Origin: Bacteroidota bacterium
GTDB lineage: Bacteria; Bacteroidota; Rhodothermia; JANXDC01
Assembly (NCBI GenBank): GCA_025998875.1
Contig: AP024675.1
Span: 629,589-693,588, forward strand
DNA length: 64,000 nucleotides
Direction: 5' to 3'
Every line of letters starts with the position of its first letter. Within the stretch, counting starts at the first letter, position 1. Of the stretch, positions 8,893 to 63,974 are shown piece by piece. Made by a program: the position numbers and the translations under genes. The notes under the pieces were generated by a model. The model had not been told where the DNA came from, ran no database searches, and saw only the letters and a program-made list of their open reading frames with translations.

Positions 8893-8935
8893 CAAAAAAA
8901 CGAGCCCGACCCTTGCTCGTGCGACACCGGCGGGC
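8893..8935 (-). terminator. putative attenuator hairpin in the infC-rpmI spacer
   Basis: GC stem (AGCCCG...CGGGCU) overlapping the infC stop, followed on the minus transcript by a UUUUUUU run. Confidence 0.35.
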
Positions 8936-9438: not shown

Positions 9439-9439
9439 C

Positions 9440-49022: not shown

Positions 49023-49050
49023 TCCATTTCACCATATAGCCATATTTAAA
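49023..49050. promoter_or_regulatory. AT-rich divergent promoter region (birA / TPR gene)
   Basis: A 28-nt spacer plus flanks (about 49000-49075) that are strongly AT-rich relative to the 65% GC background. No specific boxes assigned. Confidence 0.25.
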
Positions 49051-49704
49051 ATGAAAAATTGGATCTTCTGGGTAGGCTTTCTGCTAGCTATATGGGGCCA
49101 GGCCTCCCCTCCCCTCCTGGCGCAGGGGGCCGATGAAGAGCTTTCCCGGGTCCGAACGGCTATCGAAGCGGGCCGCTGGATCGAAGCGCGGGCCCGTCTG
49201 GAGCGCCTGATCCGAGAAAGACCGGAATGGCCAGAGGCGCGCCTGATGAGAATGGAGGTCTACCTGCGGCTCGGGATGCTGGAAGAAGCCGAACAGGAAG
49301 GAAATGCCCTGCGCAGCTGGGGCGAGAATCGTCCCGATTTCTGGACCCTGCTTGGCGATGTGTATGCAGCCCACGGCCGATGGGATGCGGCCTACGAGGC
49401 CTATCAGCAGGGCAGAGAGCGGGACCCGCAGAACCGGACGCTGTTGCTGCGCCTGGGCCACGCTGCGCTCTGGATCGAAGCCTTTGAGCCCGCACGACAG
49501 GCCTTCGAAGCCGTTCTCCGGACCCGGCCCACCGATCCGGAAGCCCATTATGGGCTGGCCCGTCTGGAGGCGCTGCGCGGACGGCCGGAAGCGGCTCTGG
49601 CGCATCTGCGGATCTGTTTCGAGCAGGGCTGGATCCAACCCGACGCAATCCGCAATGACCCCGTCTTCGCCGCCGTGGTCCGGCTTCCCGGTTTCCCTCG
49701 TTAG
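49051..49704 (+). CDS. secreted TPR-repeat protein
   Basis: Signal peptide MKNWIFWVGFLLAIWGQA, then 4-5 TPR units. Confidence 0.6.
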   Translation: MKNWIFWVGFLLAIWGQASPPLLAQGADEELSRVRTAIEAGRWIEARARLERLIRERPEWPEARLMRMEVYLRLGMLEEAEQEGNALRSWGENRPDFWTLLGDVYAAHGRWDAAYEAYQQGRERDPQNRTLLLRLGHAALWIEAFEPARQAFEAVLRTRPTDPEAHYGLARLEALRGRPEAALAHLRICFEQGWIQPDAIRNDPVFAAVVRLPGFPR

Positions 49705-50879
49705 ACGGGATGGTGGCTTCGATTCAGCCAATTCATGCGCTCCAGCACCCGCTCCAGGCGTCTGAGCACCTCGGTGATTTCTTCAGGGCGCGTTTCCCTG
49801 CCCAGGGAAAGGCGCAAGGAGGCGCGCGCGGTGGGTTCATCGAGCCCGATGGCGCGCAGCACATGCGAGGGTTCGAAAGCTCCACTGGAGCAGGCCGCTC
49901 CGTTGGACAAACAAACCCCCTCCAGATCCAAGTTAACGAGCAACATCTCCCCGTCGAGCGCCCGGCCGTTTTGCGGAGGGAAGGAGACATTGACGATATG
50001 GGGCAGGCGATCGGTCTCCGGGCTGTTGATGCGCACCCGTTCTGCAAAACGCTCCTGCAGGCCCTGCACCAGCAGGGCGCGCAGCGCCTCGGCCCGCTCC
50101 CAGTTCTCTGGGGCCTCTTCCCAGGCCAACTCCAGCGCACGGGCCATGCCGATGATCCCGGGCACGTTCTCCGTACCTCCCCGCCGATTGCGCTCCTGAG
50201 CCCCTCCTCGCAACAGGGGCTCAAACGGAGTTCCGGATCGCACGTAAAGAAATCCCACTCCCTTGGGGCCGTAGAACTTGTGCGCCGAGGCCGATAACAG
50301 ATCGACCCCCAGCTCATCTACCCGGAAACGGAGCTTGCCCACGCTCTGCACCCCATCGGTGTGCAGCCACACTCCGCACTGCCGACAGATACGGGCGATT
50401 TCCTCGATCGGGTTTATCGTTCCCAGCTCGTTGTTGGCGTGCAGCACGGAAACCAGGGCCGTGTCCGGCTCGATAGCCCGGGCGATCGCCTCCGGGTCCA
50501 CCCGTCCCCAGGCATCCACCGGCACCAGCGTGGCCCGCACGCCGAGGTAAGCCAGCCCCTCCAGTACCTCCAGCACGGCGTGGTGCTCGGTCGTCGTGCA
50601 GACCACATGTCGGCGTCCGGTGGCCAGAACCACGCCCCACAGGGCCAGGTTATTGGCTTCCGTGCCCCCACTGGTAAAGAGGATCTCCCCTGGATCGGCG
50701 CCCAGCAAAGAGGCGATGCGGTCTCGGGCTTCTTCCAGCGCCGCCCGTACGCGCCTGCCCGCCTGATGAATGGAAGAGGGGTTACCGAACTCCTCTGACC
50801 AGTACGGCCTCATGGCCTCCAGCACACGGGGATCCAGAGGCGTCGTGGCCGCGTAGTCCAGATAGATCACATGGCCCAT
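49701..50879 (-). CDS. cysteine desulfurase (NifS/IscS-like, class V aminotransferase)
   Basis: PLP-Lys motif SAHKFYGPKG; catalytic Cys region SNGAACSSG. Confidence 0.85.
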   Translation of the reverse strand: MGHVIYLDYAATTPLDPRVLEAMRPYWSEEFGNPSSIHQAGRRVRAALEEARDRIASLLGADPGEILFTSGGTEANNLALWGVVLATGRRHVVCTTTEHHAVLEVLEGLAYLGVRATLVPVDAWGRVDPEAIARAIEPDTALVSVLHANNELGTINPIEEIARICRQCGVWLHTDGVQSVGKLRFRVDELGVDLLSASAHKFYGPKGVGFLYVRSGTPFEPLLRGGAQERNRRGGTENVPGIIGMARALELAWEEAPENWERAEALRALLVQGLQERFAERVRINSPETDRLPHIVNVSFPPQNGRALDGEMLLVNLDLEGVCLSNGAACSSGAFEPSHVLRAIGLDEPTARASLRLSLGRETRPEEITEVLRRLERVLERMNWLNRSHHPV

Positions 50880-50954
50880 ATGTCGTACCTTTGTCCTGCT
50901 TACGGGGAAACCGTTCCCTCCATAGTCCGGTTCCAGAAACGCGGAGACCTTTTG

Positions 50955-52268
50955 ATGGACAAGCTCGTACTCCTTGGAGGTCGATCCCTGGAGGGGGAAG
51001 TTGCAATCAGCGGTTCCAAAAACACCGCCTTACCCCTCATGTCGGCCGCCATGCTCGTCGATGGGGTCAGCACGCTGTACAACGTGCCCCGCCTGCGGGA
51101 CATCTACACCTACAGCAACGTGCTGCGTGTAACGGGCGCCCATGTGCACTATGACCCCGAGACGCGCACCATGCACATCGACGCCTCGCGCGTGGGGCAT
51201 TTTGAAGCACCCTATGAGCTGGTCAAAAAGATGCGCGCCTCTTTTTACATCCTGGGGGCGCTTCTGGGGCGTTTTGGGCGCGCGCGGGTCTCCCTGCCGG
51301 GGGGATGTGCCTGGGGGCCAAGGCCGGTCAACCTGCACCTGGAGGGTTTTCGCGCGCTGGGAGCGGAGATCTCCCTCGATCGAGGCTACGTGGTAGCCCG
51401 GGCGCCGGCCTCGGGCCTGCGCGGGGCGCGCATCCGGTTCGAGCCCCCCAGCGTGGGGGCCACGGTGAACGTGCTCCTGGCCGCCGTGCTGGCGCGCGGA
51501 ACAACGCGCCTCGAAAACGCCGCCATGGAACCCGATGTGGTCTGCTTCGGCGAGGCGCTCAATCGAATGGGCGCCCGCATCTCGGGGCTGGGCACACCGG
51601 TCCTGGAGATCGAGGGCGTGCCAGAACTGCAGCCCCTCCTTGCTCATACCCCTCCGGACCGCATCGAGCTGGGCACCTACATGATCGCCGCCGCCATGAC
51701 CCGGGGCCGCGTCCGGCTGCTCCAGGCCGAACCCGCCCATCTGGGCGATTTTCTGGAGATATTCCGCCAGACCGGTGCCCGCGTGGAGGTCGGACCGGAC
51801 TGGATATACGTGGAAGGTCCGGAGGTGATCCAGCCCGTGAGCATTCAGACGGCGGTGTATCCCGGCTTCCCCACCGACTTGCAGGCCCAGTGGACGGCCA
51901 TGATGACCCAGGCCGATGGGGATTCGACCGTCACGGATACGATCTATTTTGACCGCTTCAAACATGTGCCAGAACTCCTCCGGATGGGCGCACAGATCGA
52001 AGTCGTGGGCAACCGCGCCCACATCCGGGGCAGGACCCGGCTGATCGGCGCGCAGGTTATGTCCACAGACTTGCGCGGAAGCGTCTCCCTCGTACTGGCC
52101 GGCCTGGTCGCCGAGGGACGAACAGACGTACTACGCGTCTATCACCTGGACAGAGGCTACGAGGCGCTCGAGGTCAAGCTCTCCGCCTTGGGCGCGGATA
52201 TCCGTCGGGAACAGTACGAGGAGTTCGGCACCGTGGTCCTTCCCCTGGAAGAGGAAGAACAGATGTAA
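50955..52268 (+). CDS. murA: UDP-N-acetylglucosamine 1-carboxyvinyltransferase
   Basis: MDKLVLLGG...ISGSKNTALP... EPSP-synthase fold. ATG verified at 50955. Confidence 0.9.
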   Translation: MDKLVLLGGRSLEGEVAISGSKNTALPLMSAAMLVDGVSTLYNVPRLRDIYTYSNVLRVTGAHVHYDPETRTMHIDASRVGHFEAPYELVKKMRASFYILGALLGRFGRARVSLPGGCAWGPRPVNLHLEGFRALGAEISLDRGYVVARAPASGLRGARIRFEPPSVGATVNVLLAAVLARGTTRLENAAMEPDVVCFGEALNRMGARISGLGTPVLEIEGVPELQPLLAHTPPDRIELGTYMIAAAMTRGRVRLLQAEPAHLGDFLEIFRQTGARVEVGPDWIYVEGPEVIQPVSIQTAVYPGFPTDLQAQWTAMMTQADGDSTVTDTIYFDRFKHVPELLRMGAQIEVVGNRAHIRGRTRLIGAQVMSTDLRGSVSLVLAGLVAEGRTDVLRVYHLDRGYEALEVKLSALGADIRREQYEEFGTVVLPLEEEEQM

Positions 52269-52314: not shown

Positions 52315-52387
52315 GGCGCATTCGTCTAGGGGTCTAGGACGCCGCCCTCTCACGGCGGAAACACGGGTTCGAATCCCGTATGCGCTA
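52315..52387 (+). tRNA. tRNA-Glu (anticodon CTC)
   Basis: Hand-folded GGCGCAT-TC-GTCT...CCGCC-CTCTCAC-GGCGG...ACGGG-TTCGAAT-CCCGT-ATGCGCT-A. It is closely parallel to E. coli tRNA-Glu except for a CUC anticodon. Confidence 0.85.
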
Positions 52388-52388
52388 C

Positions 52389-52425
52389 AAAAAAGCGGAT
52401 GAGCGCCGCGCTCATCCGCTTTTTT
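52389..52425. terminator. bidirectional intrinsic terminator (tRNA-Glu/murA on plus; PfPDO-like operon on minus)
   Basis: A6 run, then a 12-bp perfect stem AGCGGATGAGCG-CCG-CGCTCATCCGCT, then a T5 run. Confidence 0.8.
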
Positions 52426-52434: not shown

Positions 52435-53076
52435 TCAGGCTACCGCTCGCTCGATCGCTTCCAGCAGATAAGACTCCGGAACGGCGCCTTCGATGTGCTC
52501 GCGGTCGTTAATTACCGTCTTGGGCACGCCATAGACCTGATATCGGCTGGCCAGATGGGGAAACTCGATGGCCTCTACCATAGAGGCCTGGATGTTCGGA
52601 TTCAGATAGGCGAAGCGGAAAGCGCTCACCACCGCCCGCGGACAATACGGACACGTAGGGGTGACAAATACCTGTAGGTTCACCGGTTTCTGGATCCCGC
52701 GCACCCGTTCGACGATATCCTCGGGCAGATGCGTGTTTCCCGTGGATACAAGCCGGATAGCTTCCAGCAGGCTGGCAAACTCGTATCCCGAGGGAATCCC
52801 GTAGAACCGAATCCCGTAATCGCTTTCCCCCATCACCACGGTGGCCGGTATCTTGTCGATCCCGTAGGAGTTGGCCCGCTGGCGATCGAGCATGAAGTTG
52901 TAGACCTCCAGGGAGATCTGATCAGAAAGTGCGGCGACCTCTTCGAGTAGCTGGCGGGTCTCCCGGCAGTATTCGCACTCCAGCTCCTGGGTGAAGTAGA
53001 CCAGTCGCACCGGGTTTACCAGTCCGGACAGCTCTTGACGTACCAGTTCGCGCTCCCTTTCGCGTAGCAGGGTCAT
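52435..53076 (-). CDS. protein disulfide oxidoreductase, glutaredoxin-like with two thioredoxin folds (PfPDO-like)
   Basis: Two CxxC motifs (CEYC and CPYC) spaced as in Pyrococcus PDO; 213 aa. ATG verified at 53076. Confidence 0.7.
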   Translation of the reverse strand: MTLLRERERELVRQELSGLVNPVRLVYFTQELECEYCRETRQLLEEVAALSDQISLEVYNFMLDRQRANSYGIDKIPATVVMGESDYGIRFYGIPSGYEFASLLEAIRLVSTGNTHLPEDIVERVRGIQKPVNLQVFVTPTCPYCPRAVVSAFRFAYLNPNIQASMVEAIEFPHLASRYQVYGVPKTVINDREHIEGAVPESYLLEAIERAVA

Positions 53077-53093
53077 CGGGGTATCTCCTCTTG

Positions 53094-53444
53094 TTAGTAG
53101 CGTCCATTCTCTACAGGCAATCCGGCCCGACGCCAGGCCAGAATCCCTCCACGGATGTTGTAGACGTTCCGGTAGCCCAGTTGCTGGGCCACCGCCTCGG
53201 CGACCATGGCGGATCGGTTTCCGGAACGACACAGAAACAGGAGCTCCGCCTCCTTATCCGGAGGCAGCCGGGATATATCGAATGCGCTCAGAGGCAGGTG
53301 TAGCGCTCCGGGCACGGCGCCCTGCTCGTGCAACTCCTCCTTTTCCCGCACATCCACCAGCCAGGCGCCTCGCTGAAAACGCGCATAAGCCTCCTGCGGA
53401 GAGAGCTCTTCATACCCCTTTGGGGTCCAGAACCACCCACTCAT
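53094..53444 (-). CDS. single-domain rhodanese-like sulfurtransferase
   Basis: 116 aa; active-site loop CRSGNRS. Confidence 0.8.
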   Translation of the reverse strand: MSGWFWTPKGYEELSPQEAYARFQRGAWLVDVREKEELHEQGAVPGALHLPLSAFDISRLPPDKEAELLFLCRSGNRSAMVAEAVAQQLGYRNVYNIRGGILAWRRAGLPVENGRY

Positions 53445-53995
53445 CTGTATCCTCCTGTGTTGGGTTTACTCTTCCCCTGTTGCCGGGCCAGCAGGCGGGC
53501 CACGGCGCGCTCCAGATAGGGCAGCGCCGACACATCGCGCATCCCGGCCCTGCGGGCCTCGGCCAGCGCCTGCTCGGCAGACAGCCCCTTAAAACGCAGA
53601 TAGCCGTAATAAAGCTGTGCGGACCGATTGCCGGATCGGCAGTGCATAAAGATGGGTCCTGGGCTCTCCTCCAGGGCGCGCACAAAACGCGCCAGCACCT
53701 CCGGGGTAATCGTCTCCGGCCCTCCTACGGGGATGTTCACGTAGCGCAGCCCGAGCCGACGGGCCACCTCGGCCTCATCAAAAGGACGCCGCTCCTCGGG
53801 AAGGCGATTGTCGATCACGGTCCGGTATCCCGCCCTGCTCAGGGCGCGCAACTGCGCCTCCGTGGGCTGCCCACCGCAGGCCAGCCCGGGGCGCAGCAGC
53901 ACCCCATTGGGGATATCCTGAGGCAAGCCAGAATCCTGGACCCCTGTTCCAGCACCGAACACGAACATCAGAATACCGATGAACCACGCGCGCAT
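53441..53995 (-). CDS. DUF442/phosphatase-like (CX5R) sulfur-metabolism accessory protein, putatively exported
   Basis: Signal-peptide-like N-terminus MRAWFIGILMFVFGAGTG, then HCRSGNRS in a PTP-like fold. This domain is commonly fused or adjacent to persulfide dioxygenases (Blh). Confidence 0.55.
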   Translation of the reverse strand: MRAWFIGILMFVFGAGTGVQDSGLPQDIPNGVLLRPGLACGGQPTEAQLRALSRAGYRTVIDNRLPEERRPFDEAEVARRLGLRYVNIPVGGPETITPEVLARFVRALEESPGPIFMHCRSGNRSAQLYYGYLRFKGLSAEQALAEARRAGMRDVSALPYLERAVARLLARQQGKSKPNTGGYR

Positions 53996-54118
53996 AGGGT
54001 TTACCCCGTGTACTTGTGCCCTTTCGATGCAACCGGGTAGCGAAGATGTCATCGGGTTGTGTACTCCGGGGGGAATACGTATTTTCTCCGCGTTTGCCTA
54101 CCTCCTGGGTGGAAGGCT

Positions 54119-54415
54119 ATGAAGCAAAAAGCAGAACAGCTGACCCTTTCGCACATCGAGGATCGAAAGGAAATTCTGCGTCGCCTGGCCCGGATCGAGG
54201 GCCAGATCCGCGCTCTACAGCGTCTGATCCAGGAAGAGGCCGACTGCGCCACAATCATACAGCAGATGATGGCCGCCCGCCAGGCGGTGCATAAAACCTT
54301 TGCCGAGCTGATGGCCCGCCTGCTCACGCGGGAGTGCCTGCTAACGGAACACCTCTCCGAAGAAGAACGCCAGAACCTGGGCCATCTGGCCGATCTGATT
54401 CGCCGTTATCTGTAA
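54119..54415 (+). CDS. CsoR/CstR-family (DUF156) transcriptional repressor with two Cys
   Basis: 98 aa; ...RLARIEGQIRALQRLIQEEADCATIIQQMMAARQAVHKTFAELMARLLTRECLL... (Cys in EADC and RECL). ATG verified at 54119. Confidence 0.7.
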   Translation: MKQKAEQLTLSHIEDRKEILRRLARIEGQIRALQRLIQEEADCATIIQQMMAARQAVHKTFAELMARLLTRECLLTEHLSEEERQNLGHLADLIRRYL

Positions 54416-54463
54416 ACGCCGGACAGGTGTCCGACCCGAAAATACCCGCAGCGGCTCGGATGT

Positions 54464-54492
54464 CTTGACTTTTTAGTCGGACCTCTATACTA
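54464..54492 (+). promoter_or_regulatory. sigma70-like promoter plus GGGGGTAT-containing pseudo-palindrome upstream of the rhodanese-MBL gene (coordinates +/-1)
   Basis: TTGACT, 15-17 nt, TATACT/TACTAT. The ATACTATAGGGGGTAT overlap resembles CsoR-type operators. An upstream inverted repeat CGGACAGGTGTCCG lies at about 54420-54434. Confidence 0.4.
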
Positions 54493-54524
54493 TAGGGGGT
54501 ATCCGGTCAGGAGGTCTTCCACCT

Positions 54525-55709
54525 ATGGAATGGAAAACTCAGTTCACCCCCGAGGAAGTGGCCGAGCTGCTGGAACGAGGCGTTGGCTTCGGCGTGCTGG
54601 ACGTACGCAATGAAGAGGAATTCCGGCGCTGGCGCCTGGAGGGGCCAAACACCCCCCAAACCCTGCATATCCCCTACTTTGAGGCGCTGGAGGATGAGGA
54701 GGCCTTCGTCTCTCGCGTAGAGGCCGAGCTGGGTCGGGGGCCCATCCTAGCCATCTGCGCCAAGGGAGGATCATCGGACTGGATCGCCCAGGAGATCCTG
54801 CGGCCCCGGGGCTTTCAGGTCGCGAACATGATCGGGGGCATGGAGGCCTGGGGATCTAGCTATCGCATTCGCCTGCTTCCGGAATCCAAACAGGATACGG
54901 TGCGCATCTGGCAGCTGGATCGCTTCGGCCGGGGGTGCCTGCATTACGTAGTTGCCTCGGAAGGCGAAGCGATCCTTATCGATCCCCCTCGGCATATCGA
55001 GCGCGTACTGGAGCTCCTGTCGCGGGAAGGGCTACAGATCCGGGCCATTCTGGACACGCACGCCCATGCCGATCACATCTCCGGAGGCCCCGCGCTGGCG
55101 GAACGGACCGGCGCTCCTTACTATCTGCATCCCTACGACGGCATCCACCCTATCGACGTGCTTCCGGCTCAGATCCCGTTTGCCTTTCTGCAAGAGGGCA
55201 TGCGCTTTTCGGTGGGCTCGGCCGCCCTAGACGTTCTGCATATACCCGGCCACACGCTAGGCAATACGGCTTTTCTTCTGCAGGGGCAGAAGCGCTACCT
55301 CTTTACGGGGGATAGCCTCTTCATCCAGAGCGTTGCGCGGCCTGATCTGGGCGGTCGGGGGGAGGCGTGGGCGCCTCTGCATTTCCGATCCCTGCGTCGG
55401 CTGCTTCATCTTCCGGCGGATACGATCGTCCTGCCGGGCCATTACGCCTCGGCCGCGCGGGAGCAGCGCGCCGATGGCCTCTTTGCCGCCCCGCTGGGCG
55501 AGTTGCTCAGGAGCAACCCCGATCTGGCTCTGCAAGAGGAGGAAGCCTTTGTTTCCTATATCCTGGCCCACCTTCCGGAGTTTCCCCCGCAGTACGTGGA
55601 TATCAAACGGGTAAACGCCGGGCTCCTGCGACTGGATGAGGAGGGCCTCAACGAACTGGAGCTGGGCAAAAACGTCTGCGCGCTCTCGGGTGCTTATACA
55701 ACATCATAA
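54525..55709 (+). CDS. rhodanese-MBL fusion, persulfide dioxygenase-like (CstB/Blh-like)
   Basis: N-terminal rhodanese with CAKGGSS loop; C-terminal metallo-beta-lactamase fold with HAHADHISGG (HxHxDH). Confidence 0.75.
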   Translation: MEWKTQFTPEEVAELLERGVGFGVLDVRNEEEFRRWRLEGPNTPQTLHIPYFEALEDEEAFVSRVEAELGRGPILAICAKGGSSDWIAQEILRPRGFQVANMIGGMEAWGSSYRIRLLPESKQDTVRIWQLDRFGRGCLHYVVASEGEAILIDPPRHIERVLELLSREGLQIRAILDTHAHADHISGGPALAERTGAPYYLHPYDGIHPIDVLPAQIPFAFLQEGMRFSVGSAALDVLHIPGHTLGNTAFLLQGQKRYLFTGDSLFIQSVARPDLGGRGEAWAPLHFRSLRRLLHLPADTIVLPGHYASAAREQRADGLFAAPLGELLRSNPDLALQEEEAFVSYILAHLPEFPPQYVDIKRVNAGLLRLDEEGLNELELGKNVCALSGAYTTS

Positions 55710-55722
55710 AGGAGGCTCCGCC

Positions 55723-55983
55723 ATGGGGGAGATCGTCGTAGCCAGGGAACTCGACGTCCGCGGCCTACAGTGTCCCATGCCCCTGGTCAACGCACACCGG
55801 GCGATCAAGCAGATCGCCGTGGGCGAGGTGCTCAAAGTGCTGGCCACGGATCGGGGCTCGCTTTTGGACTTTAAGGGCTGGGCGGAAACAGACGACTCCG
55901 TCGAGTTGCTCCAGCAGGAAGAATATACCGACGAGCAAGGACGACGGGTGTACGTGCACTACCTGCGACGGGTAGAACCCTGA
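55723..55983 (+). CDS. tusA: TusA/SirA-like sulfur carrier
   Basis: 86 aa; LQCPMP (CPxP) motif. GGAGG Shine-Dalgarno; ATG verified at 55723. Confidence 0.8.
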   Translation: MGEIVVARELDVRGLQCPMPLVNAHRAIKQIAVGEVLKVLATDRGSLLDFKGWAETDDSVELLQQEEYTDEQGRRVYVHYLRRVEP

Positions 55984-56007
55984 ATAACCAGGGAGGAGGA
56001 GAGCATC

Positions 56008-56592
56008 ATGGCCGAAGCCATTGCCCAGGATCTGGAGACCCGCCTCCAGGAGCTCACCCAACGCCTGGAAGCGCTGGAGAGCCGCTATGAAAAAGACATG
56101 CGCCGCATCCAGCGGCACCTACCGGAGAACCGGGTGGCGATCATCTGCTTCAGCGGTAATCTGGACAAGGCCATGGCCGCGCTGATCATCGCCACCGGCG
56201 CGGCCTCAATGGGCATGCAGGTCTCGATTTTCTTCACCTTCTGGGGCTTGAGCGTGATCAAAAATGGCGCCCAGCTGCGGGGCAAATCCTTCATGGAAAA
56301 GCTCTTCAGCATCATGCTCCCGGAGAACATGCGCGAGCTCGGCCCCTCTCAGATGAACTTCGGCGGCATTGGCGCGCGTATGATGCGGGCCATTATGCGC
56401 AAAAAGCAGGTTCAGTCCCTCGAGGAGCTCTTCCAGCTGGCCCGTGAGCTGGGAGTTCGCCTGGTGGCCTGCACGATGAGCATGGATGTGATGGGCATCC
56501 GGGCCGAGGAACTGCTTCCCGGCATGGAGCTGGGTGGGGTGGCCACCTACCTGGCCGATGCCTCCAAATCCAAAGTCACGCTGTTTATCTAA
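56008..56592 (+). CDS. DsrE/DsrF-family (DsrE3/COG2210-like) sulfur carrier with N-terminal coiled-coil extension
   Basis: ...RVAIICFSGNLDKAMAALIIATGAASMGMQVSIFFTFWGL...LVACTMSMDVMG (conserved Cys). Confidence 0.65.
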   Translation: MAEAIAQDLETRLQELTQRLEALESRYEKDMRRIQRHLPENRVAIICFSGNLDKAMAALIIATGAASMGMQVSIFFTFWGLSVIKNGAQLRGKSFMEKLFSIMLPENMRELGPSQMNFGGIGARMMRAIMRKKQVQSLEELFQLARELGVRLVACTMSMDVMGIRAEELLPGMELGGVATYLADASKSKVTLFI

Positions 56593-56643
56593 CAGCGCGA
56601 CCCATTCGGACCGCTCACAGAGCCTCAGGAGAGGAGGGCGGGG

Positions 56644-58317
56644 ATGAACTATGGTTTCATCATCGATAACCGTAAGTGTATCGGCTGTCATGCTTGCACG
56701 GTGGCCTGCAAGGCGGAGCACGAAATCCCGCTCGGCGTCAACCGCACCTGGGTCAAATACGTCGAAAAGGGGCGCTATCCGAACACGCGGCGCTTGTTTG
56801 CCGTGCACCGGTGCAACCACTGCGCCGAGGCCCCGTGTGTGGAGATCTGCCCCGTAGAGGCGCTCTTTGTGCGCCCCGACGGGATCGTGGATTTCGATAA
56901 CGCCCGCTGCATCGGGTGCAAGTCCTGCATGCAGGCCTGTCCTTATGATGCGCTCTATATCGATCCGGAGACGCACACGGCGGCCAAGTGCAATTTCTGC
57001 GCGCATCGTATTGACCTGGGTCTGGAACCGGCCTGTGTGGTGGTCTGCCCGGAACATGCCATCATCGCCGGGGATCTGGACGATCCCCACTCGGAGATCA
57101 GCCAGCTTCTGGCCCGCGAACAGGTCCAGGTGCGCAAACCGGAAAAGGGCACCCTGCCCAAGCTCTGGTACATCGATGGGGACGAGGCCTCCCTAGATCC
57201 CCTGGCCACCCGGCGAGAGACGGAATACTTCTGGAGCGAACAGGCCACCGGGGTGGGGCATTTTGCCCGCTATGCGGAGATGCGGCAGGCGAACCGGGAT
57301 CCGGATCAGCTCCTCTATCAGCTGGCCGTCTTGCCCTCGGACTGGGCCCGTGCTGAGGCCCGGGTAGCCGAGGAGCTACGCCGTGAAGACGGACAGCGGG
57401 CCATGGGCGATCCCCTGCTCCGGATGCAGGAGGCCGTCTACGGGCAGAGCCCGGCCAGGCGCACCTATGACACCCCCTCGAAAGGGGTGCTCTGGGGATG
57501 GGAGGTTTCCGGATACATCTGGACAAAGGCCATTGCCGCGGGTGCGTTTCTGGTGCCGTTTCTTCTGCAGGATCTGGGCCTTGTCCGACTCGGCCCCGTG
57601 GCGGAATGGGTCGCCTGGGGGGTTGCCCTCCTGTTTTTGTTGCTGACCGGACTGCTATTAATCAAAGACCTGGACCGACCCGATCGGTTTCTGTACGTAT
57701 TGCTTCGCCCTCAGAAGCGTTCCTGGCTCGTCAAGGGCGCCTATATCCTTACCGGCTACGGAGCGGCCCTGGCCCTGTGGGGGGTATCACGCTGGCTGGA
57801 AAGCCCCGAACTGGGTTGGCTGGCCCGCCTGACGGGTTATCTGGGCGCCCTGGGCGCGGCCACATATACGGCCTTTTTGTTTGCTCAGGCCAAGGGGCGG
57901 GACTTCTGGCAGAGCCCCATGCTTGCCCCGCACATGCTTCTGCACGCCCTGCTGGCCGGAGGATCGGTGGGACTGCTCCTGGCCTGGGGTTTCGGCCTAG
58001 ATGCAACCCCCTTCGGCTGGGTTACCGCCTTCTCGGGGGCAGCAGGGCTCCTGATAGTAGCCATAGAGCTGGCTATGCCGCATCCCACACGGGATGCTCA
58101 TCTGGTGGCCCAGATCATCATGCGCGGCTACTATCGCCGGCTGTTCTGGCATACCGTGCTCTGGGGACACCTGCTGCCCGTAGTCGGGCTTTTCCTCGGA
58201 CTCTGGCTCGGTTGGCCTGTGGCCCTGTTGGCCCTGCTGGGCCTGATACTGCTTGTGGCCGTGCTGCCCATCGAGCACCTCTGGGTGCGCGTGCCTCAGC
58301 TCATCCCCCTGGCCTGA
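56644..58317 (+). CDS. fusion of a 4x[4Fe-4S] ferredoxin-type subunit (PsrB/SoeB-like) with an NrfD/PsrC-like polytopic membrane anchor
   Basis: N-terminal about 200 aa with four Cys clusters (CIGCHACTVAC, CNHCAEAPCVEICP, CIGCKSCMQACP, CNFCAHRIDLGLEPACVVVCP). C-terminal about 310 aa with about 8 TM helices. A single uninterrupted frame with a GGAGG Shine-Dalgarno. Confidence 0.7.
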   Translation: MNYGFIIDNRKCIGCHACTVACKAEHEIPLGVNRTWVKYVEKGRYPNTRRLFAVHRCNHCAEAPCVEICPVEALFVRPDGIVDFDNARCIGCKSCMQACPYDALYIDPETHTAAKCNFCAHRIDLGLEPACVVVCPEHAIIAGDLDDPHSEISQLLAREQVQVRKPEKGTLPKLWYIDGDEASLDPLATRRETEYFWSEQATGVGHFARYAEMRQANRDPDQLLYQLAVLPSDWARAEARVAEELRREDGQRAMGDPLLRMQEAVYGQSPARRTYDTPSKGVLWGWEVSGYIWTKAIAAGAFLVPFLLQDLGLVRLGPVAEWVAWGVALLFLLLTGLLLIKDLDRPDRFLYVLLRPQKRSWLVKGAYILTGYGAALALWGVSRWLESPELGWLARLTGYLGALGAATYTAFLFAQAKGRDFWQSPMLAPHMLLHALLAGGSVGLLLAWGFGLDATPFGWVTAFSGAAGLLIVAIELAMPHPTRDAHLVAQIIMRGYYRRLFWHTVLWGHLLPVVGLFLGLWLGWPVALLALLGLILLVAVLPIEHLWVRVPQLIPLA

Positions 58318-58336
58318 GAGAAGGAGGTATTCGCCT

Positions 58337-61225
58337 ATGGCCAAATCCTGGATAGAGCGCGCCGCCGAAGCTCTGCGCCTGATCCCCCGAATCGACTCCA
58401 ACGGAAGTACCCCCCTGCCCCGACTTGAGCCCGGTTCGGGGTTGCGTTCCTACCCCCCGAGGGAGCGCTGGAATCACTGGGAAGAATATGACCCTCGGGC
58501 CTGGCCCCGGAAGCGCAAACGGGCCTACATGCTTGTGCCCACCATCTGTTTTAACTGCGAAGCCGGATGCGGCCTGTTGGCCTATATTGACAAGGAAACC
58601 GGACAGGTGCGCAAACTGGAGGGCAATCCCTACCACCCCGGTTCGCGCGGCCGTAACTGCGCAAAAGGGCCGGCTACGATCAACCAACTCACCGATCCGG
58701 ATCGTATCCTCTATCCTCTGCGCCGCAAAGGCGAGCGAGGATCCGGTCAATGGGAGCGCGTATCCTGGGAAGAAGCCCTGGAGGATATCGCCGCCCGGAT
58801 CCGCCGCGCGCTCGAAGAGGGACGCAACAACGAAATCGTCTACCATGTGGGCCGACCGGGCCACGAGGGATACATGGAACGCGTGCTGGGGGCCTGGAAC
58901 GTAGACGGACATAACAGCCATACGAACATCTGCTCTTCCGGGGCCCGCTTTGGATACGCCATCTGGCAGGGATACGATCGGCCCTCCCCGGATCACGCCA
59001 ATGCCCGCTTTATCCTGCTGCTGAGTTCCCATCTGGAGACGGGCCATTACTTCAACCCCCACGCCCAGCGCATCATCGAGGGCATGATGCGCGGAGCCAA
59101 GCTGGCGGTTATGGACCCCCGGCTCTCGAACACAGCCAGTATGGCCGACTACTGGCTGCCGACCTATCCGGGCTCCGAAGCCGCTGTACTGCTGGCCATG
59201 GCGCGCATCCTGCTCCTGGAGGGTCGATACGATCGGGAATTCCTGGAGCACTGGGTCAACTGGCACGATTACCTCAACGCCCGACATCCCCAGCGACCGC
59301 GCACCTTCGAGGCCTTCATCGAAGCGCTCCTGGAAGAATATGCCCTCTTCACCCCGGAATTCGCCGCCCGGGAGGCCCAGATCGATCCTGAGCTCATCAT
59401 CGCCGTAGCCCGGGAGATCGGCGAGGCCGGATCCCGCTTTGCCACCCACAACTGGCGCTCGGCCTCCAGCGGCAACCTGGGTGGCTGGACTGTGGCGCGC
59501 GCGCTGCATTTTCTCAACGTCCTTACCGGATCGGTCGGCACCTATGGTGGCACCAGCCCGAGCGCCTGGAACAAGTTCAAGCCCATCGTGCCGCATGCCC
59601 CGCCGGCCACCCGATTCTGGAACGAGCTCCATTTCCCCCTGGAGTATCCGCTGGCCCACTACGAGATGAGCTTCCTACTGCCACACTTCCTCAAGGAGGG
59701 GCGCGGCCGGCTGGAGGTTTACTTTACGCGCGTCTTCAATCCCGTATGGACGTATCCGGACGGCTTTTCCTGGATCGAGGTGTTGCGGGATGAATCCAAA
59801 ATCGGCCTGCATGTAGCCCTGACCCCCACGTGGAACGAGACGGCCTACTGGGCCGACTACGTCCTGCCCATGGGACATGCCTCCGAACGACACGATATCG
59901 TCAGCTACGAAACCCATTCCGGCATCTGGATAGGCTTTCGCCAGCCCGTACTGCGCGAAGCGCTTCGCCGGCAGGGCAAACCGGTCCGCTTCACCTACGA
60001 AGCCAACCCCGGAGAAGTCTGGGAAGAGGACGAATTCTGGATTGAGCTCTCCTGGCGTATCGATCCCGAAGGCCGTCTGGGCATCCGGAAGCACTTCGAA
60101 TCCCCCTATCGTGCCGGGGAGAAGATGACTATTGAAGAATACTACCAGTACGTCTTCGAGCACGTGCCCGGCCTTCCGGAAGCGGCCGCCCGGGAAGGGC
60201 TTACCCCCCTGGAATACATGCGCCGCTACGGAGCCTTCGAGGTGAAAAAGCACGTCTACGAGAAACACCTCGATCCGGTGCCCGAAGAGCTGGCCCGCCA
60301 GGCGGAAATCGATCCGGAAACCCATATCGCCTACGTACATACGGACAGCGGGGAGCGACAGGCCATCGGGGTATACTACCAGGGCCAGATCCGCACGGGA
60401 TTTCCTACCCCCACGCGCAAACAGGAGTTCTACTCGCAGACCATGGTCGACTGGGGATGGCCAGAATACGCCATCCCGACCTATATCAAAAGTCATGTGC
60501 ATCCGGAACGGATTAACCGGGACAACAACGAGTTCGTCCTGGTGCCCACGTTCCGTTTGCCCACACTCATCCACACCCGCAGCGGTAACGCCAAGTACCT
60601 GGTGGAGATCTCCAACCGAAACCCGATCTGGATACACACCCGCGATGCGGAGCGCATCGGGGTGAAAACGGGAGACCTGGTGCGAGTCACCACGGAGATC
60701 GGCTACTTCGTCGATCGCGTCTGGGTCACGGAGGCGATTAAACCCGGCGTGGTGGCCTGCTCGCACCATATCGGGCGCTGGCGACGGGAACAGGATCCGC
60801 CGGGCAACCGATGGGCCACCAGCACCGTGCGGATCGAGGAAATCGCGCCCGGTCAGTGGCGCATGCAACAGGTCCGGGGGGTGGAGCCGTTTGTCAGTTC
60901 CGACCCCGACTCCAGGCGCATCTTCTGGCGGGATGGCGGAGTGCATCAGAACATCACGCACCCCGTACACCCGGATCCCATTTCGGGCATGCACTGTTGG
61001 CACCAGTGGTGCCGCATCGAGAAGGCCAGACCGGAGGACCGCTACGGAGACGTGTTCGTGGACACGAACAAATCTTTTGCCGTCTACCGGCAGTGGCTGG
61101 CCATGACGCGCCCGGGTCCGGGTCCCGGAGGACTGCGCCGGCCCCTGTGGCTGAACCGGCCGTTTCGGCCCGCCCCAGAGACCTTCTATGTAACCTCAGA
61201 GGCGCAATCACCGCCAGAGAGCTGA
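58337..61225 (+). CDS. molybdopterin (DMSO-reductase-family) oxidoreductase catalytic subunit without Tat signal (SoeA-like)
   Basis: 962 aa; N-terminal CFNCEAGCG...C [4Fe-4S] motif and the molybdopterin dinucleotide-binding domain pattern. No RRxFLK motif. Strong GGAGG Shine-Dalgarno; ATG verified at 58337. Confidence 0.75.
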   Translation: MAKSWIERAAEALRLIPRIDSNGSTPLPRLEPGSGLRSYPPRERWNHWEEYDPRAWPRKRKRAYMLVPTICFNCEAGCGLLAYIDKETGQVRKLEGNPYHPGSRGRNCAKGPATINQLTDPDRILYPLRRKGERGSGQWERVSWEEALEDIAARIRRALEEGRNNEIVYHVGRPGHEGYMERVLGAWNVDGHNSHTNICSSGARFGYAIWQGYDRPSPDHANARFILLLSSHLETGHYFNPHAQRIIEGMMRGAKLAVMDPRLSNTASMADYWLPTYPGSEAAVLLAMARILLLEGRYDREFLEHWVNWHDYLNARHPQRPRTFEAFIEALLEEYALFTPEFAAREAQIDPELIIAVAREIGEAGSRFATHNWRSASSGNLGGWTVARALHFLNVLTGSVGTYGGTSPSAWNKFKPIVPHAPPATRFWNELHFPLEYPLAHYEMSFLLPHFLKEGRGRLEVYFTRVFNPVWTYPDGFSWIEVLRDESKIGLHVALTPTWNETAYWADYVLPMGHASERHDIVSYETHSGIWIGFRQPVLREALRRQGKPVRFTYEANPGEVWEEDEFWIELSWRIDPEGRLGIRKHFESPYRAGEKMTIEEYYQYVFEHVPGLPEAAAREGLTPLEYMRRYGAFEVKKHVYEKHLDPVPEELARQAEIDPETHIAYVHTDSGERQAIGVYYQGQIRTGFPTPTRKQEFYSQTMVDWGWPEYAIPTYIKSHVHPERINRDNNEFVLVPTFRLPTLIHTRSGNAKYLVEISNRNPIWIHTRDAERIGVKTGDLVRVTTEIGYFVDRVWVTEAIKPGVVACSHHIGRWRREQDPPGNRWATSTVRIEEIAPGQWRMQQVRGVEPFVSSDPDSRRIFWRDGGVHQNITHPVHPDPISGMHCWHQWCRIEKARPEDRYGDVFVDTNKSFAVYRQWLAMTRPGPGPGGLRRPLWLNRPFRPAPETFYVTSEAQSPPES

Positions 61226-61237
61226 GCGCTGGCCGCG

Positions 61238-63007
61238 ATGGGGCATCCCTCGGAAGACCGGATCCATCTGGCCCCGTTTCTGAAGGATCTGCGCGCTTAT
61301 ACGTGGGGCACGTTTCGGATGGACCTGCAGGCGGGCCTCACGGTGGCCGTCTTCGCTGTGCCGCAGGTCATGGCCTATGCTATCCTGGCTGGCCTTCCCC
61401 CTACCTACGGGCTCTATGCGGCTATCACAACCGCAGCCATAGCGGCCCTCTGGGGCAGCTCCCCGTATGTGAACACGGGCCCCACGAACTCAGCCGCCCT
61501 CCTGACGGCAGGCGCGCTGGCCGCCTTCGCCGGCGATCCAGACTTCCTGGGGATCGTGTTCTTTTTTACCCTGCTGACAGGCCTCATCCGGATGGCTCTG
61601 GGCCTGCTGCGGCTGGGCAACCTGATCGATTTCGTACCCGAGTCGGCCTTTCTGGGCTTTACGATGGGCGCCGGCGTGCTCATCGGACTGGGCCAGTTCC
61701 ATCATCTGCTCGGCGTGGAGGCCTCCTCGAACGCGTGGTTCCCCGGGCGCATCTGGGATACGCTCGCCCGCTTTCCGGAAGCCAATCCGTATGCCCTCTC
61801 CATCGGCCTGGGAACAGCCGTTCTGCTTCTCGCCCTGGAACGCTACAACCGGTACTTTCCCGTTGCCCTTGGGGTCATCGGGCTGGGCACGCTGGGAGCC
61901 TGGCTGTGGGCTGAGGGGAAGCTGACCCTGGTGCGGGACGTCAGCCCCATACCGCGACAGCTCCCCCATTGGGAACTGCCCGCACTCCGATTCGATCTGC
62001 TCGACGAGCTCCTGCCTGGCGCGATGGCCGTGGCCCTTCTGGGCTTGATCGAGGCGGTTTCCATCGGCCAGACGCTTGCGCTCAAGCGCGGAGAGCGACT
62101 CAACTTCAATCAGGAATTTTTCGGCCAGGGCCTGAGCCATGTGGTAGCCGCTTTCTTTCAGGGCATTCCGGGTTCGGGCTCCTTTAGCCGTTCGGCCCTC
62201 ATCGAGCAAGCCGGAGGACAGACCCGCTTTGCCAATGTGGCCTATGCGGCCTGGATCGCTCTGGCTGTGCTCACGATAGCCCCCCTGCTGGAACGCATCC
62301 CGATCGCCTCGCTGGCTGGCTTATTGCTCTACATCGGTTATCGGCTCATCGACCTGCGTCGGCTCAAGCAGACATGGGCCATCTCGCGCTCCGATACCCT
62401 GGTGCTCGGCATCACGTTTCTCGTCACCGTGGGCTATCGAATCGAACTGGGCATCTTCTCCGGACTCCTTGTCGCCCTGATCATGTTTCTACGCCGGGCC
62501 CGTATCCTGCACCTGTTTGAGCTGCTCCCCCAGCAGGGGGGATCGTTCGCAGAGGTATCCTACCTGCCCGATCGAACCCACGAGCCCAGCGGACTGGTGG
62601 CCCTGGGCGTCTATGGGGACCTGTTTTTCGCCGTCGCCCAGGAATTGCGCACGCAACTACAGCAGATCGTGGAACTGCAGAAGCCACGCGTGATCGTGCT
62701 GCGCACCCGAGGCGCCCGCTCGATCGATTACTCCTGCTGGAACGCGCTCTTCGAGTTCGCTACATACTTCCACCGCCGAGGGGGCCGGCTTGTGCTTGTG
62801 GGCCTGCGGGAAGACTATTGGCGCATCATCCGGGATGCCGGCATGGATTCCGTACTACCCCCGCAACAGCTCTACCCAGCAGGCCATTCCCTGCTGGCCT
62901 CCTTTCAAGGCGCGCTGCGGGACTGGTTGCCCCGCGTCGATGCGGAGACGCTTTCCCCCGCCTGGCGGGCCTATCGGGATGCGCTCGTGGCCTCGACGAC
63001 CTCTTGA
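61238..63007 (+). CDS. SulP-family anion (sulfate) permease with C-terminal STAS domain
   Basis: ...AVPQVMAYAILAGLPPTYGLYAA... SulP signature; about 11 TM helices plus STAS. Confidence 0.85.
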   Translation: MGHPSEDRIHLAPFLKDLRAYTWGTFRMDLQAGLTVAVFAVPQVMAYAILAGLPPTYGLYAAITTAAIAALWGSSPYVNTGPTNSAALLTAGALAAFAGDPDFLGIVFFFTLLTGLIRMALGLLRLGNLIDFVPESAFLGFTMGAGVLIGLGQFHHLLGVEASSNAWFPGRIWDTLARFPEANPYALSIGLGTAVLLLALERYNRYFPVALGVIGLGTLGAWLWAEGKLTLVRDVSPIPRQLPHWELPALRFDLLDELLPGAMAVALLGLIEAVSIGQTLALKRGERLNFNQEFFGQGLSHVVAAFFQGIPGSGSFSRSALIEQAGGQTRFANVAYAAWIALAVLTIAPLLERIPIASLAGLLLYIGYRLIDLRRLKQTWAISRSDTLVLGITFLVTVGYRIELGIFSGLLVALIMFLRRARILHLFELLPQQGGSFAEVSYLPDRTHEPSGLVALGVYGDLFFAVAQELRTQLQQIVELQKPRVIVLRTRGARSIDYSCWNALFEFATYFHRRGGRLVLVGLREDYWRIIRDAGMDSVLPPQQLYPAGHSLLASFQGALRDWLPRVDAETLSPAWRAYRDALVASTTS

Positions 63008-63585
63008 GCGCAGGGGCGCGTGCGCTCCAGCATCCGGAAGACGGCTTCCCGGGTCTGGCCCACCATACCTTCGAGGGAAGCCACATACCCCATGCGCCAG
63101 AACCAGAACGCATGCTGGATCATACCCACGATCCAGGCGGTGGCCAGCTCCGGATCGACGGGACGAAATGCTCCCTGATGGATGCCCTCCCGGATCACGG
63201 CAACGAAATACGTCTTGGGCAGCACAACCGCCGGGGGTGGATTCCAGATGACCGGATGACGGTGCAGCTGCTGGAGATAGGCAAAAGCCTCTGGCTCCTG
63301 TAAGGCGAATTCGAACATGCCCACCAGGAGCGCGCCCAACCGGCTACGGGGTCCCTCCCGGCCGGCGAGCGCGTTCTGAAGCGCGGTGCCCATGCGTTCG
63401 GCGCAGGCCTCGAACAGCTTGCGGGCCAGATCCGTTTTGCTGGCGAAATGACGATACAGATTCCCCTCGGCCGTGCCCGCCAGGCGGGCGATTTCCCGCG
63501 TGCTCGTGCCCTCATAGCCTTTCTCGACGAAAAGCCGCAGGGCAGCTTTCCGGATTTCGGCTTCCTTCCGAGCGGAACGCGCCAT
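62971..63585 (-). CDS. TetR/AcrR-family transcriptional regulator
   Basis: HTH ...FVEKGYEGTSTREIARLAGTAEGNLYRHF... ATG verified at 63585. Convergent with, and overlapping, the sulP 3' end. Confidence 0.85.
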   Translation of the reverse strand: MARSARKEAEIRKAALRLFVEKGYEGTSTREIARLAGTAEGNLYRHFASKTDLARKLFEACAERMGTALQNALAGREGPRSRLGALLVGMFEFALQEPEAFAYLQQLHRHPVIWNPPPAVVLPKTYFVAVIREGIHQGAFRPVDPELATAWIVGMIQHAFWFWRMGYVASLEGMVGQTREAVFRMLERTRPCAQEVVEATSASR

Positions 63586-63587
63586 TT

Positions 63588-63974
63588 TCAGAAATCCCTC
63601 CGCATAAACCGCCACTGGGCCCATCCCAGGGGTCCGACAGCCCACAACAGCAGCACCCCCAGCGCGATCAGCTGGCCGAGCACCCCTCCCAGCAGGCGTT
63701 CATAGAGTGCCCCCGTATAACCCATCAGGAGCGCGGCCTCCAGGCGCATCGTCAACAGAATGCGCGCCAGGTCCAGAGGATTGAAAAACGTCAGCACGAA
63801 AGCGGGACGCTCTACCGGGTAATCGCGCAGCAGCAGGAGCAACAAGAGCAACAGGGCGTCGTAGAGCACGGCCGTGAAAAACCAGAAAACCATCCCTATC
63901 CCAAAGGCCCGTGTCCGATCTTCCCGTGTCACCGCCAGCCCAAAACCGATCCCGTAGTAGATGACAATGAGCAA
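63588..63974 (-). CDS. hypothetical polytopic membrane protein, possibly truncated by the window edge
   Basis: 128-aa hydrophobic ORF immediately upstream of tetR. The gene may extend beyond 64000. Confidence 0.35.
   Translation of the reverse strand: MLIVIYYGIGFGLAVTREDRTRAFGIGMVFWFFTAVLYDALLLLLLLLLRDYPVERPAFVLTFFNPLDLARILLTMRLEAALLMGYTGALYERLLGGVLGQLIALGVLLLWAVGPLGWAQWRFMRRDF

Follow-up and report, generated by a model that had tools for sequence, protein, structure and literature searches.

Results

Layout of the locus

We analysed a stretch of 64,000 nucleotides from a Bacteroidota bacterium (GTDB lineage Bacteria; Bacteroidota; Rhodothermia; JANXDC01), taken from contig AP024675.1 of assembly GCA_025998875.1 (positions 629,589 to 693,588, forward strand) and referred to below as the window. 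Between positions 52435 and 63007 it carries ten genes (Table 1) for a two-Cys repressor, several proteins that handle persulfide sulfur, a molybdenum (Mo) enzyme with an iron-sulfur (Fe-S) and membrane-anchor subunit, and a permease. Each gene in the open reading frame listing gave a significant family match in Pfam or NCBIfam profile searches, and every gene listed in an earlier description of this DNA made from its letters alone (the sequence-only reading) is present at the position and on the strand given there. Successive genes of the long operon (54119-63007) are separated by 109, 13, 24, 51, 19 and 12 bp, and no strong terminator was found inside it. The whole arrangement, divergent operon included, is repeated in the metagenome-assembled genome GCA_026416915.1 ('Bacteroidetes bacterium', locus L081), whose proteins are 60-89% identical to those of the window. 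The locus is therefore a real unit and not a chance juxtaposition, and the conserved neighbourhood that the sequence-only reading had proposed to look for in related genomes is present.

Table 1. Genes and other features of the locus, in window coordinates (gene starts corrected where needed).
Feature	Position	Strand	Basis or remark
Terminator-like hairpin, strong, bidirectional, 17-bp stem	52389-52425		Left edge of locus; tRNA-Glu on one side, end of divergent operon on the other
PfPDO-type protein disulfide oxidoreductase	52435-53076	-	TIGR02187 and Pfam; last gene of divergent operon
Rhodanese, single-domain	53094-53444	-	PF00581 2.5e-16
DUF442 (Rhd442-type) sulfurtransferase	53441-53995	-	PF04273 3e-10, TIGR01244, Blh N-domain
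Candidate CstR operator 1, GTACTCCGGGGGGAATAC	54062-54080		Divergent promoter region; predicted
CstR-type (two-Cys CsoR-family) repressor	54119-54415	+	PF02583 1.5e-17
Sigma-70-like promoter TTGACT-17-TACTAT, overlapped by candidate operator 2, ATACTATAGGGGGTAT	54465-54502	+	Before Rho-PDO gene
Rho-PDO (rhodanese-MBL fusion)	54525-55709	+	Profile and PDB matches
TusA sulfur carrier	55723-55983	+	PF01206
DsrE2-like sulfur carrier	56008-56592	+	PF13686 1e-55
4Fe-4S and NrfD fusion	56644-58317	+	Profile matches, hydrophobicity
Mo-bisPGD catalytic subunit, 962 aa, 111 kDa	58337-61225	+	Profile and PDB matches
SulP and STAS permease	61238-63007	+	PF00916 1.2e-88, PF01740

A CstR-type repressor and its candidate operators

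The regulator has the all-helical CsoR/RcnR fold (PF02583, 64.2 bits; cut-off 22.8). In the alignment with Enterococcus faecalis CstR (7MQ3) its Cys residues, 'adC' and 'treC', match both Cys of that protein, while Leu occupies position -4, where copper-sensing CsoR has His, and the N-terminus (MKQK) is without the Pro2 of the FrmR type. The Cys alignment and the lack of both the copper-ligand His and Pro2 uphold the earlier assignment as a two-Cys repressor of the CsoR/CstR family.

Two pseudo-palindromes are candidate operators for this protein. The first has the counterpart GTACCCCCGGGGGAATAT in L081, which carries ATACTGATATGGAGTAT at the position of the second, and a similar sequence, GTACCCCGGTTGAGTAT, lies just upstream of the CsoR-like regulator gene of Thermomicrobium roseum. 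The operator motif has one match in the window, yet at least one match was found in 28 of 100 shuffles, so that the count alone is not significant. The sites are only candidates for this reason, and we retained them because L081 shares them and T. roseum has a loose counterpart. In Bacillus licheniformis, YrkD occupies two intergenic regions, from which sulfane sulfur releases it (PMC9918477). The layout of two candidate sites mirrors that of YrkD; regulation of the locus by the CstR-type protein is presumed.

Sulfur-handling proteins of the two operons

The PfPDO-type protein encoded by the divergent operon exceeds the equivalog cut-off of TIGR02187 (283.6 against 185 bits) and comprises two thioredoxin folds, with the motifs CEYC and CPYC. 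The single-domain rhodanese has a CRSGNRS active-site loop and the DUF442 protein an HCRSGNRS loop. The DUF442 protein also has a hydrophobic stretch at residues 20-38 of its open reading frame (MRAWFIGILMFVFGAGTG...), which is kept in L081. A signal peptide or membrane anchor is thus probable and, because of this N-terminal segment, the DUF442 protein may leave the cytoplasm or be tethered to the membrane, in contrast to the other proteins of the pathway. Identities to the L081 counterparts are 81% for the PfPDO-type protein, 73% for the rhodanese, 65% for the DUF442 protein and 80% for the Rho-PDO protein of the long operon.

In Rho-PDO an N-terminal rhodanese domain, which has kept its catalytic Cys (loop CAKGGSS), is fused to a metallo-beta-lactamase (MBL) domain (PF00753, 80.6 bits) with the motifs HAHADH, PGHT and GD...ARPDL. 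The metal-ligand motifs HAHADH, PGHT and TGD align with those of 3TP9 and CstB. The best solved relatives of the MBL domain are 3TP9, Staphylococcus aureus CstB (3R2U), BpPRF, the Myxococcus persulfide dioxygenase (PDO; 4YSB) and the Arabidopsis and human ETHE1 proteins, with a PDB ranking of 3TP9 (1e-34), 3R2U (1.5e-19), 5VE3 (6e-19), 4YSB (1.7e-16) and 2GCU (1e-14). Structures of glyoxalase II, the grouping that would have spoken against a PDO-type domain, rank lower (1XM8, 3e-12; 1QH3, 7e-7), and the PDO-type identification stands; in NCBIfam, GloB is the top sub-threshold match of Rho-PDO (82.8 bits, cut-off 200.8). The 'Rho-PDO' architecture is described as known but uncharacterised in a 2026 study (PMC13047784). 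The protein of the window is 35% identical over its full length to a homologue on plasmid pRHL3 of Rhodococcus jostii RHA1.

The next gene encodes TusA, as had been read from its CPxP motif, here CPMP (PF01206, 60.8 bits, cut-off 28.6). It is followed by a DsrE-like protein that is extended by a coiled coil at its N-terminus and has a conserved Cys within VACTMSMD. Its best PDB match is 3PNX. With subgroups assigned to PDB entries according to PMC11094781, it matches DsrE2B (2QS7, 4e-17) far better than DsrE3A (3MC3, 1.6e-5), and DsrE2 is its sole NCBIfam match (98.9 bits, below the cut-off of 210). The label 'DsrE3-like' given by the sequence-only reading is for these reasons unsupported. Pairs of TusA and DsrE2-like genes recur as a small unit beside CstR-like, ArsR or rhodanese genes in metagenomic loci (L091-L120), where no PDO or Mo enzyme was found within reach of them. 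The last gene of the operon encodes a SulP permease with a STAS domain (PF00916, 298 bits; PF01740, 42 bits; TIGR00815, 320 bits, below the cut-off of 380). The family identity given in the sequence-only reading thus holds, and the export that it attached to this protein was an assumed direction.

The molybdoenzyme is predicted to face the cytoplasm

Two genes of the long operon encode what we call here the module. The first product fuses a four-cluster Fe-S part, similar to TtrB and PsrB, to a quinone-interacting anchor of the NrfD/PsrC type with eight transmembrane segments, all eight visible as hydrophobic stretches. The second is the catalytic subunit, of the type that binds molybdenum-bis(pyranopterin guanine dinucleotide) (Mo-bisPGD). 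The Fe-S domain begins at residue 1 of the fusion and has no signal peptide, its N-terminus being predicted inside, and the Mo subunit has no twin-arginine translocation (Tat) signal. With the Fe-S domain placed inside, Lys and Arg number 15 in the predicted inside loops of the anchor versus 1 in the outside loops. Since neither the Mo subunit nor the Fe-S domain carries a signal peptide, and given this distribution of charges, the active site is placed on the cytoplasmic side. The Tat-less, cytoplasmic Mo subunit of the sequence-only reading is in this way supported by both the N-termini and the positive-inside count.

The N-terminal [4Fe-4S] motif of the Mo subunit, CX2CX3CX27C, is formed by C71, C74, C78 and C108, and the Mo ligand is Cys199, which aligns with Cys173 of Thermus PsrA and with the ligand of ArrA. 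The four cluster Cys and Cys199 are invariant across 36 sequences, and the redox chain of the module is predicted to be intact. A family-specific C-terminal extension bears the invariant motifs SHHxGRWRR and DPISGMHCWHQ. Two further invariant Cys lie there (residues 800-895), Cys808 and Cys887, within the His/Arg-rich stretches ACSHHxGRWRR and DPISGMHCWHQ, which have no counterpart in PsrA, PhsA or ArxA. The AlphaFold model of this subunit was of low confidence (pLDDT, the predicted local distance difference test, 64) and was set aside.

Relatives of the catalytic subunit

The closest solved relatives of the Mo subunit in the PDB are Thermus PsrA (1e-38) and ArrA (1.7e-35). In NCBIfam it matches DmsA/YnfE and PhsA at about 183 bits, far under the cut-offs (for PhsA, 182.6 against 694), and the Fe-S part matches TtrB at 205.6 bits (cut-off 416). 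PhsA, TtrA and ArxA carry the twin-arginine motif RRxFLK, and a distance tree placed the family on a branch separate from PhsA and TtrA. With no Tat motif, a low PhsA score and a separate branch, the Mo subunit falls outside the Psr/Phs group. We also rejected the name formate dehydrogenase, used by some sources, and the FqoABC/PSRLC3 complex, because formate models and structures score below Psr/Phs and Dms and because the context is one of sulfur.

A Tat motif is absent from the Mo subunit in the window, L081, KSB1, Lewinellaceae, T. roseum, RHA1 and Natrinema, and also from the divergent relatives P0124, P0125 and P0128. The other examined relatives of at least 700 aa bear a twin-arginine motif, with the exception of P0204 and P0229 (about 740-750 aa). 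Among the Tat-bearing proteins is a sister group (P0126, a Sulfurovum gene) with 40-45% identity, which shares SHTNIC(S/A)GAR, SHHxGRWR and DPISGMHCWHQ; there, the Fe-S and NrfD proteins have a gene each and are accompanied by a TorD chaperone. Within this lineage the loss of Tat coincides with the joining of the Fe-S subunit onto the anchor at its N-terminal end, and from this coincidence we infer that fusion and Tat loss together are the route by which the complex came to face inward. The Sulfurovum copy, on a Sulfurovum mangrovi plasmid (L086, about 7900-11050), is frameshifted and unannotated in its record. Two of the divergent Tat-less paralogues lie in a PDO/YeeE context (L121, 5604-8480): P0124 is without the Mo-ligand Cys and P0125 without the Cys of the N-terminal [4Fe-4S] cluster, so that these proteins may be cofactor-less or differently ligated, and they recall QrcB and ActB.

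Candidates for SoeA, the catalytic subunit of the sulfite dehydrogenase SoeABC, were obtained by tblastn against plasmid records and all were rejected: H9 and H51 belong to Arx clusters, H42 is a cytochrome-c-linked enzyme, H57 a ferredoxin-linked enzyme, H38 a 732-aa protein and H61 FdsA-like. No Tat-less proteobacterial protein of SoeA size was found among the 150 nearest cluster representatives of the Mo subunit; in the exhaustive HMMER search of 50%-identity representatives, the family itself falls to one main representative.

The module is widespread and accompanies sulfur genes

The pair of Fe-S/NrfD fusion and Mo subunit is highly conserved, and a scan of one genome per species detected at least 598 loci with it. 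Lutibacter aestuarii and Flavilitoribacter nigricans are among the carriers. Hosts are found in the Bacteroidota (Saprospiraceae, Lewinellaceae, Cyclobacteriaceae, Flavobacteriales), KSB1, Calditrichota, Acidobacteriota, Planctomycetota, Chlorobiota and others. Plasmid records added Mo subunits from T. roseum (65% identity), R. jostii RHA1 (60%) and haloarchaea (56-60%), and relatives at about 70% identity number in the thousands in the protein database. The arrangement is thus not special to this genome: the core module is widespread, and a five-gene set is also present on pRHL3.

In order to describe the context of the module, the open reading frames neighbouring 84 module loci were clustered without prior assumptions and the clusters were then annotated. 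In 69 of the 84 loci the gene immediately before the Mo gene encodes the Fe-S/NrfD fusion. SulP is the most frequent neighbour beside the module (35 loci), and a CstB-like protein with an MBL and two rhodanese domains occurs in 24. Halves of YeeE/Sulf_transp were found in 12 and 9 loci, a small rhodanese in 12, an SQR-like flavoprotein in 7, and regulators of the Crp and ArsR families in 7 and 4, respectively. At least one sulfur gene is present in 24 of the 41 fully flanked loci. Enzymes forming sulfite or thiosulfate from persulfide are steady companions of the module and, with persulfide and sulfite neighbours recurring across many phyla, the sulfur-trafficking context of the molybdoenzyme that had been proposed for this single locus is supported.

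Individual loci illustrate the variation. In T. roseum the order is CsoR-like (two to three Cys, no His), Fe-S/NrfD, Mo. On pRHL3 (RHA1_RS43835-43855) a divergent Rho-PDO gene is followed by DsrE, TusA, Fe-S/NrfD, Mo and Mrp, with two further MBL proteins, ArsR regulators and a thioredoxin in the vicinity. A Myxococcota contig (L121) carries a sigma-54 activator, PDO, rhodanese, the YeeE halves, Fe-S/NrfD and Mo, and haloarchaeal loci have Fe-S/NrfD, Mo and Mrp. The gene of this Mrp/NBP35 Fe-S carrier overlaps the 3' end of the Mo gene on pRHL3 (L083, 11799-12968) and in Natrinema (L085, 11011-12171), a position that suggests a dedicated maturation factor in these two lineages; it is absent from the window. 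Three classes of regulator recur by the module, namely CstR-like proteins (the window, L081, T. roseum), ArsR-family proteins (RHA1 and others) and a sigma-54 activator (L121), and each of these classes includes persulfide sensors.

Boundaries of the locus

On the left, the hairpin of Table 1 directly follows a tRNA-Glu(CTC) gene (52315-52388). Its stem is near-perfect, with A and T runs on the flanks, and it could stop transcription in both directions. An Rfam scan of the window returned tRNAs only. The neighbours to the left of the tRNA gene (48165-52268: a BirA-like ligase, a TPR protein, a cysteine desulfurase and MurA) are likewise syntenic in L081. The cysteine desulfurase, of the IscS/NifS type (49701-50879, - strand), lies near the persulfide locus either by coincidence or not. 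On the right, a TetR-family gene (62971-63645, - strand) is convergent with the SulP gene and overlaps its 3' end by 37 bp. At this position L081 has a gene for a c-type cytochrome (14814-15275) instead, so that synteny stops at SulP. A search of the window for genes of SQR, Sox and YeeE gave none.

Discussion

The evidence supports a cst/yrk-like gene cluster for the detoxification of reactive sulfur under a CstR-type repressor, in agreement with the relation to the Staphylococcus cst operon that the sequence-only reading had pointed out. In B. licheniformis the yrk cluster has the order YrkD(CstR)-DsrE-Rhd-PDO-TusA-TauE-thioredoxin (PMC9918477). As in S. aureus cst and Bacillus yrk, a two-Cys repressor of the CsoR family heads the cluster, with two intergenic sites (candidates in the window), and the genes include a PDO fused to a rhodanese, carriers of the TusA and DsrE types, an extra rhodanese and a thioredoxin-like protein (PMC9918477). 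The TauE/SafE sulfite exporter of those systems is replaced here by a respiratory molybdoenzyme and SulP. Further differences are the rhodanese domain being N-terminal to the MBL domain, the lack of SQR in the window, and the host, which is a member of the Bacteroidota and not a Firmicute. The uncharacterised cluster on pRHL3 likewise has Rho-PDO, DsrE, TusA, Fe-S/NrfD and Mo together (35-60% identity); it differs from the window in the swapped order of tusA and dsrE, in Mrp/NBP35 rather than SulP after the Mo gene, in regulators of the ArsR type and in being plasmid-borne.

Regarding the molybdoenzyme, the Mo-ligand Cys, the [4Fe-4S] motif and the types of B and C partners are those of PsrABC/PhsABC (Thermus 2VPZ, Salmonella) and of Arr/Arx. 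These enzymes, which form separate branches in the distance tree, are Tat-exported, face the periplasm and have 750-880 aa, in contrast to the Tat-less protein of 962 aa described here. The sulfite dehydrogenase SoeABC of Allochromatium vinosum and Aquifex aeolicus reduces quinone and has no Tat signal (PMC8076601, PMC9774590). Like the module it is a complex iron-sulfur molybdoenzyme of three parts, and it resembles the module in its Mo-bisPGD subunit (about 110 kDa, [4Fe-4S] cluster at the N-terminus), its multi-cluster Fe-S protein, its NrfD-type anchor of eight transmembrane segments, its lack of Tat signals and its cytoplasmic active site. Like SoeABC, the module would act after a cytoplasmic step that forms sulfite, and tusA sometimes adjoins soe genes (PMC8076601, PMC9774590, PMC11507549). 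It departs from SoeABC in the fusion of Fe-S protein and anchor and in gene order, which is BC and then A in the 69 loci mentioned above and not soeA-soeB-soeC. In a KEGG-based survey SoeC was confined to the Proteobacteria, a few Clostridia and the Aquificae (PMC8076601), a range outside which the phyla with this module fall, and SoeABC occurs mainly in Rhodobacterales and Oceanospirillales (PMC10580873). Gene order and fusion, the 150 nearest relatives and the distribution of SoeC argue, indirectly, against a close kinship of the Mo subunit to SoeA.

Taking these observations together, we propose that the locus is a persulfide-responsive system of detoxification and oxidation in which the Mo enzyme would oxidise sulfite with quinone as acceptor, as an analogue of SoeABC. 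We give this reading a probability of about one half; it draws on orientation, genomic context and the analogy with SoeABC rather than on kinship or activity. In the absence of reactive sulfur the repressor would sit on the two GC-rich pseudo-palindromes, in the divergent promoter region and over the -10 element before the long operon, and it would let go once its Cys are persulfidated. Sulfane sulfur would be gathered and relayed by the rhodanese, the DUF442 protein, TusA and the DsrE2-like protein, while the PfPDO-type thiol-disulfide oxidoreductase would keep the Cys of these carriers reduced. Rho-PDO would then convert persulfide and O2 to sulfite in the cytoplasm, and the inward-facing Mo-bisPGD enzyme would oxidise this sulfite to sulfate, with electrons passing from the [4Fe-4S] cluster of the Mo subunit through the clusters of the Fe-S domain and on to quinone at the NrfD anchor. 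Finally, SulP would carry the resulting anion over the membrane. Both the substrate of the Mo enzyme and the direction of electron flow are what this scheme suggests on grounds of context. Compared with the full pathway outlined in the sequence-only reading, the cst-like operon, the PDO-like MBL domain and the inward-facing molybdoenzyme are kept, and the DsrE3 label and export through SulP are not.

Several points weigh against oxidation of sulfite. The best characterised relatives of the Mo subunit are polysulfide and thiosulfate reductases and enzymes of arsenate and arsenite, at only 24-32% identity. A link to canonical SoeA at the level of sequence was not found, and the NCBIfam matches included no Soe model. 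Since the Tat-exported sister group has the same active-site motifs, these motifs are not specific to a cytoplasmic role with sulfite. Sulfur genes are missing from the surroundings of the module in 17 of the 41 well-flanked loci, and characterised SulP proteins are mostly importers. CstB-type enzymes in which PDO and rhodanese are joined, such as S. aureus CstB, release thiosulfate and not free sulfite, which would favour a substrate linked to thiosulfate. We found no expression or biochemical data on any member of the module in the literature.

The alternative that best survives is that the Mo enzyme acts on species with an S-S bond and that SulP or YeeE would carry thiosulfate. The enzyme could be a cytoplasmic thiosulfate reductase working in reverse, joining sulfide or persulfide to sulfite with electrons going to quinone, or a quinol-driven reductase that clears thiosulfate, polysulfide or tetrathionate from the cytoplasm. 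The nearest solved and curated relatives, PsrA and PhsA for the Mo subunit and TtrB for the Fe-S part, and the Cys ligand common to Psr, Phs, Ttr and Arr are compatible with such a role, although the PhsA and TtrB scores are far under the family cut-offs and the family branches apart from PhsA and TtrA. YeeE/Sulf_transp, a family of thiosulfate uptake, lies by the module in 12 loci and in L121, but SulP is the commoner neighbour. PDO-rhodanese fusions tend toward thiosulfate as product; on the other hand, a reductive role beside an enzyme that depends on O2 would make little physiological sense. We regard this alternative as possible, though rather doubtful.

It is also conceivable, and in our view unlikely, that the Mo enzyme directly oxidises sulfane sulfur bound to carriers (a persulfide or thiosulfonate on TusA or DsrE) without O2 and with electrons going to quinone, in which case the dioxygenase would be an aerobic bypass and the module a third cytoplasmic system of sulfane oxidation beside rDsr and sHdr. 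The genes tusA and dsrE are immediately upstream of Fe-S/NrfD and Mo in the window, in L081 and on pRHL3, and just downstream of the module in two Chlorobiota loci; Cys808 and Cys887, invariant and set in His-rich motifs of the C-terminal extension, also count in its favour. However, TusA or DsrE is near the module in only about 5 of the 84 loci, and an obligate coupling of the two to the Mo enzyme was downgraded when a metagenome scan based on DsrE gave 30 loci, none of them with the Mo module. The pairing of TusA and DsrE as an independent mini-module, beside CstR, ArsR or rhodanese genes, weakens the case further. The same invariant motifs are found in the Tat-exported sister enzymes, which are unable to meet the cytoplasmic TusA, and Mo-bisPGD enzymes normally carry out two-electron oxo-transfer, while the conversion of sulfane sulfur to sulfite needs four electrons. 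In its broadest form, that of an O2-independent, quinone-linked oxidase of carrier sulfane that has spread horizontally as a third route beside rDsr and sHdr over more than ten phyla including archaea, we consider the idea very unlikely.

ArsR-family proteins beside PDO genes are typically persulfide sensors, which counts against taking their presence near the module in several loci as a sign of metalloids. Least probable of all is a non-sulfur oxyanion or metalloid as substrate (arsenite, selenite, tellurite), with the sulfur genes nearby reflecting a shared regulation by thiol stress: the closest relatives of the Mo subunit include ArrA and ArxA-like enzymes, with the low identities given above, and arsenite induces a Tat-less 'Soe-like' enzyme of Thioalkalivibrio (PMC6620896), whereas neither the window nor the set of recurrent neighbours, which consists of PDO, rhodanese, SQR, YeeE and SulP, contains ars, acr3 or any gene specific to arsenic.

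In a literature search that left most subscription journals outside its reach, we found no description of this family with its fused anchor and missing Tat signal, nor of its association with PDO operons, and the module is widespread and apparently undescribed. It accompanies PDO genes in Bacteroidota, Calditrichota, Acidobacteriota, Actinomycetota, Thermomicrobiota and haloarchaea, and the standard markers of SoeABC seem to miss it. The oxidation of sulfide through SQR and persulfide dioxygenase is common among heterotrophs. In metagenomic surveys PDO is often abundant, with canonical sulfite dehydrogenases rare or absent (e.g. PMC12345210). If the oxidation of sulfite proposed here is correct, a molybdoenzyme that faces inward and is associated with PDO could be the missing step of sulfite disposal in heterotrophs, and one that also conserves energy. 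The hypothesis is directly testable, because cultured carriers such as Rhodococcus jostii RHA1 and Thermomicrobium roseum exist. In addition, the family would offer a natural example of how a respiratory molybdoenzyme may be inverted through fusion of its Fe-S and NrfD subunits and loss of the Tat signal.

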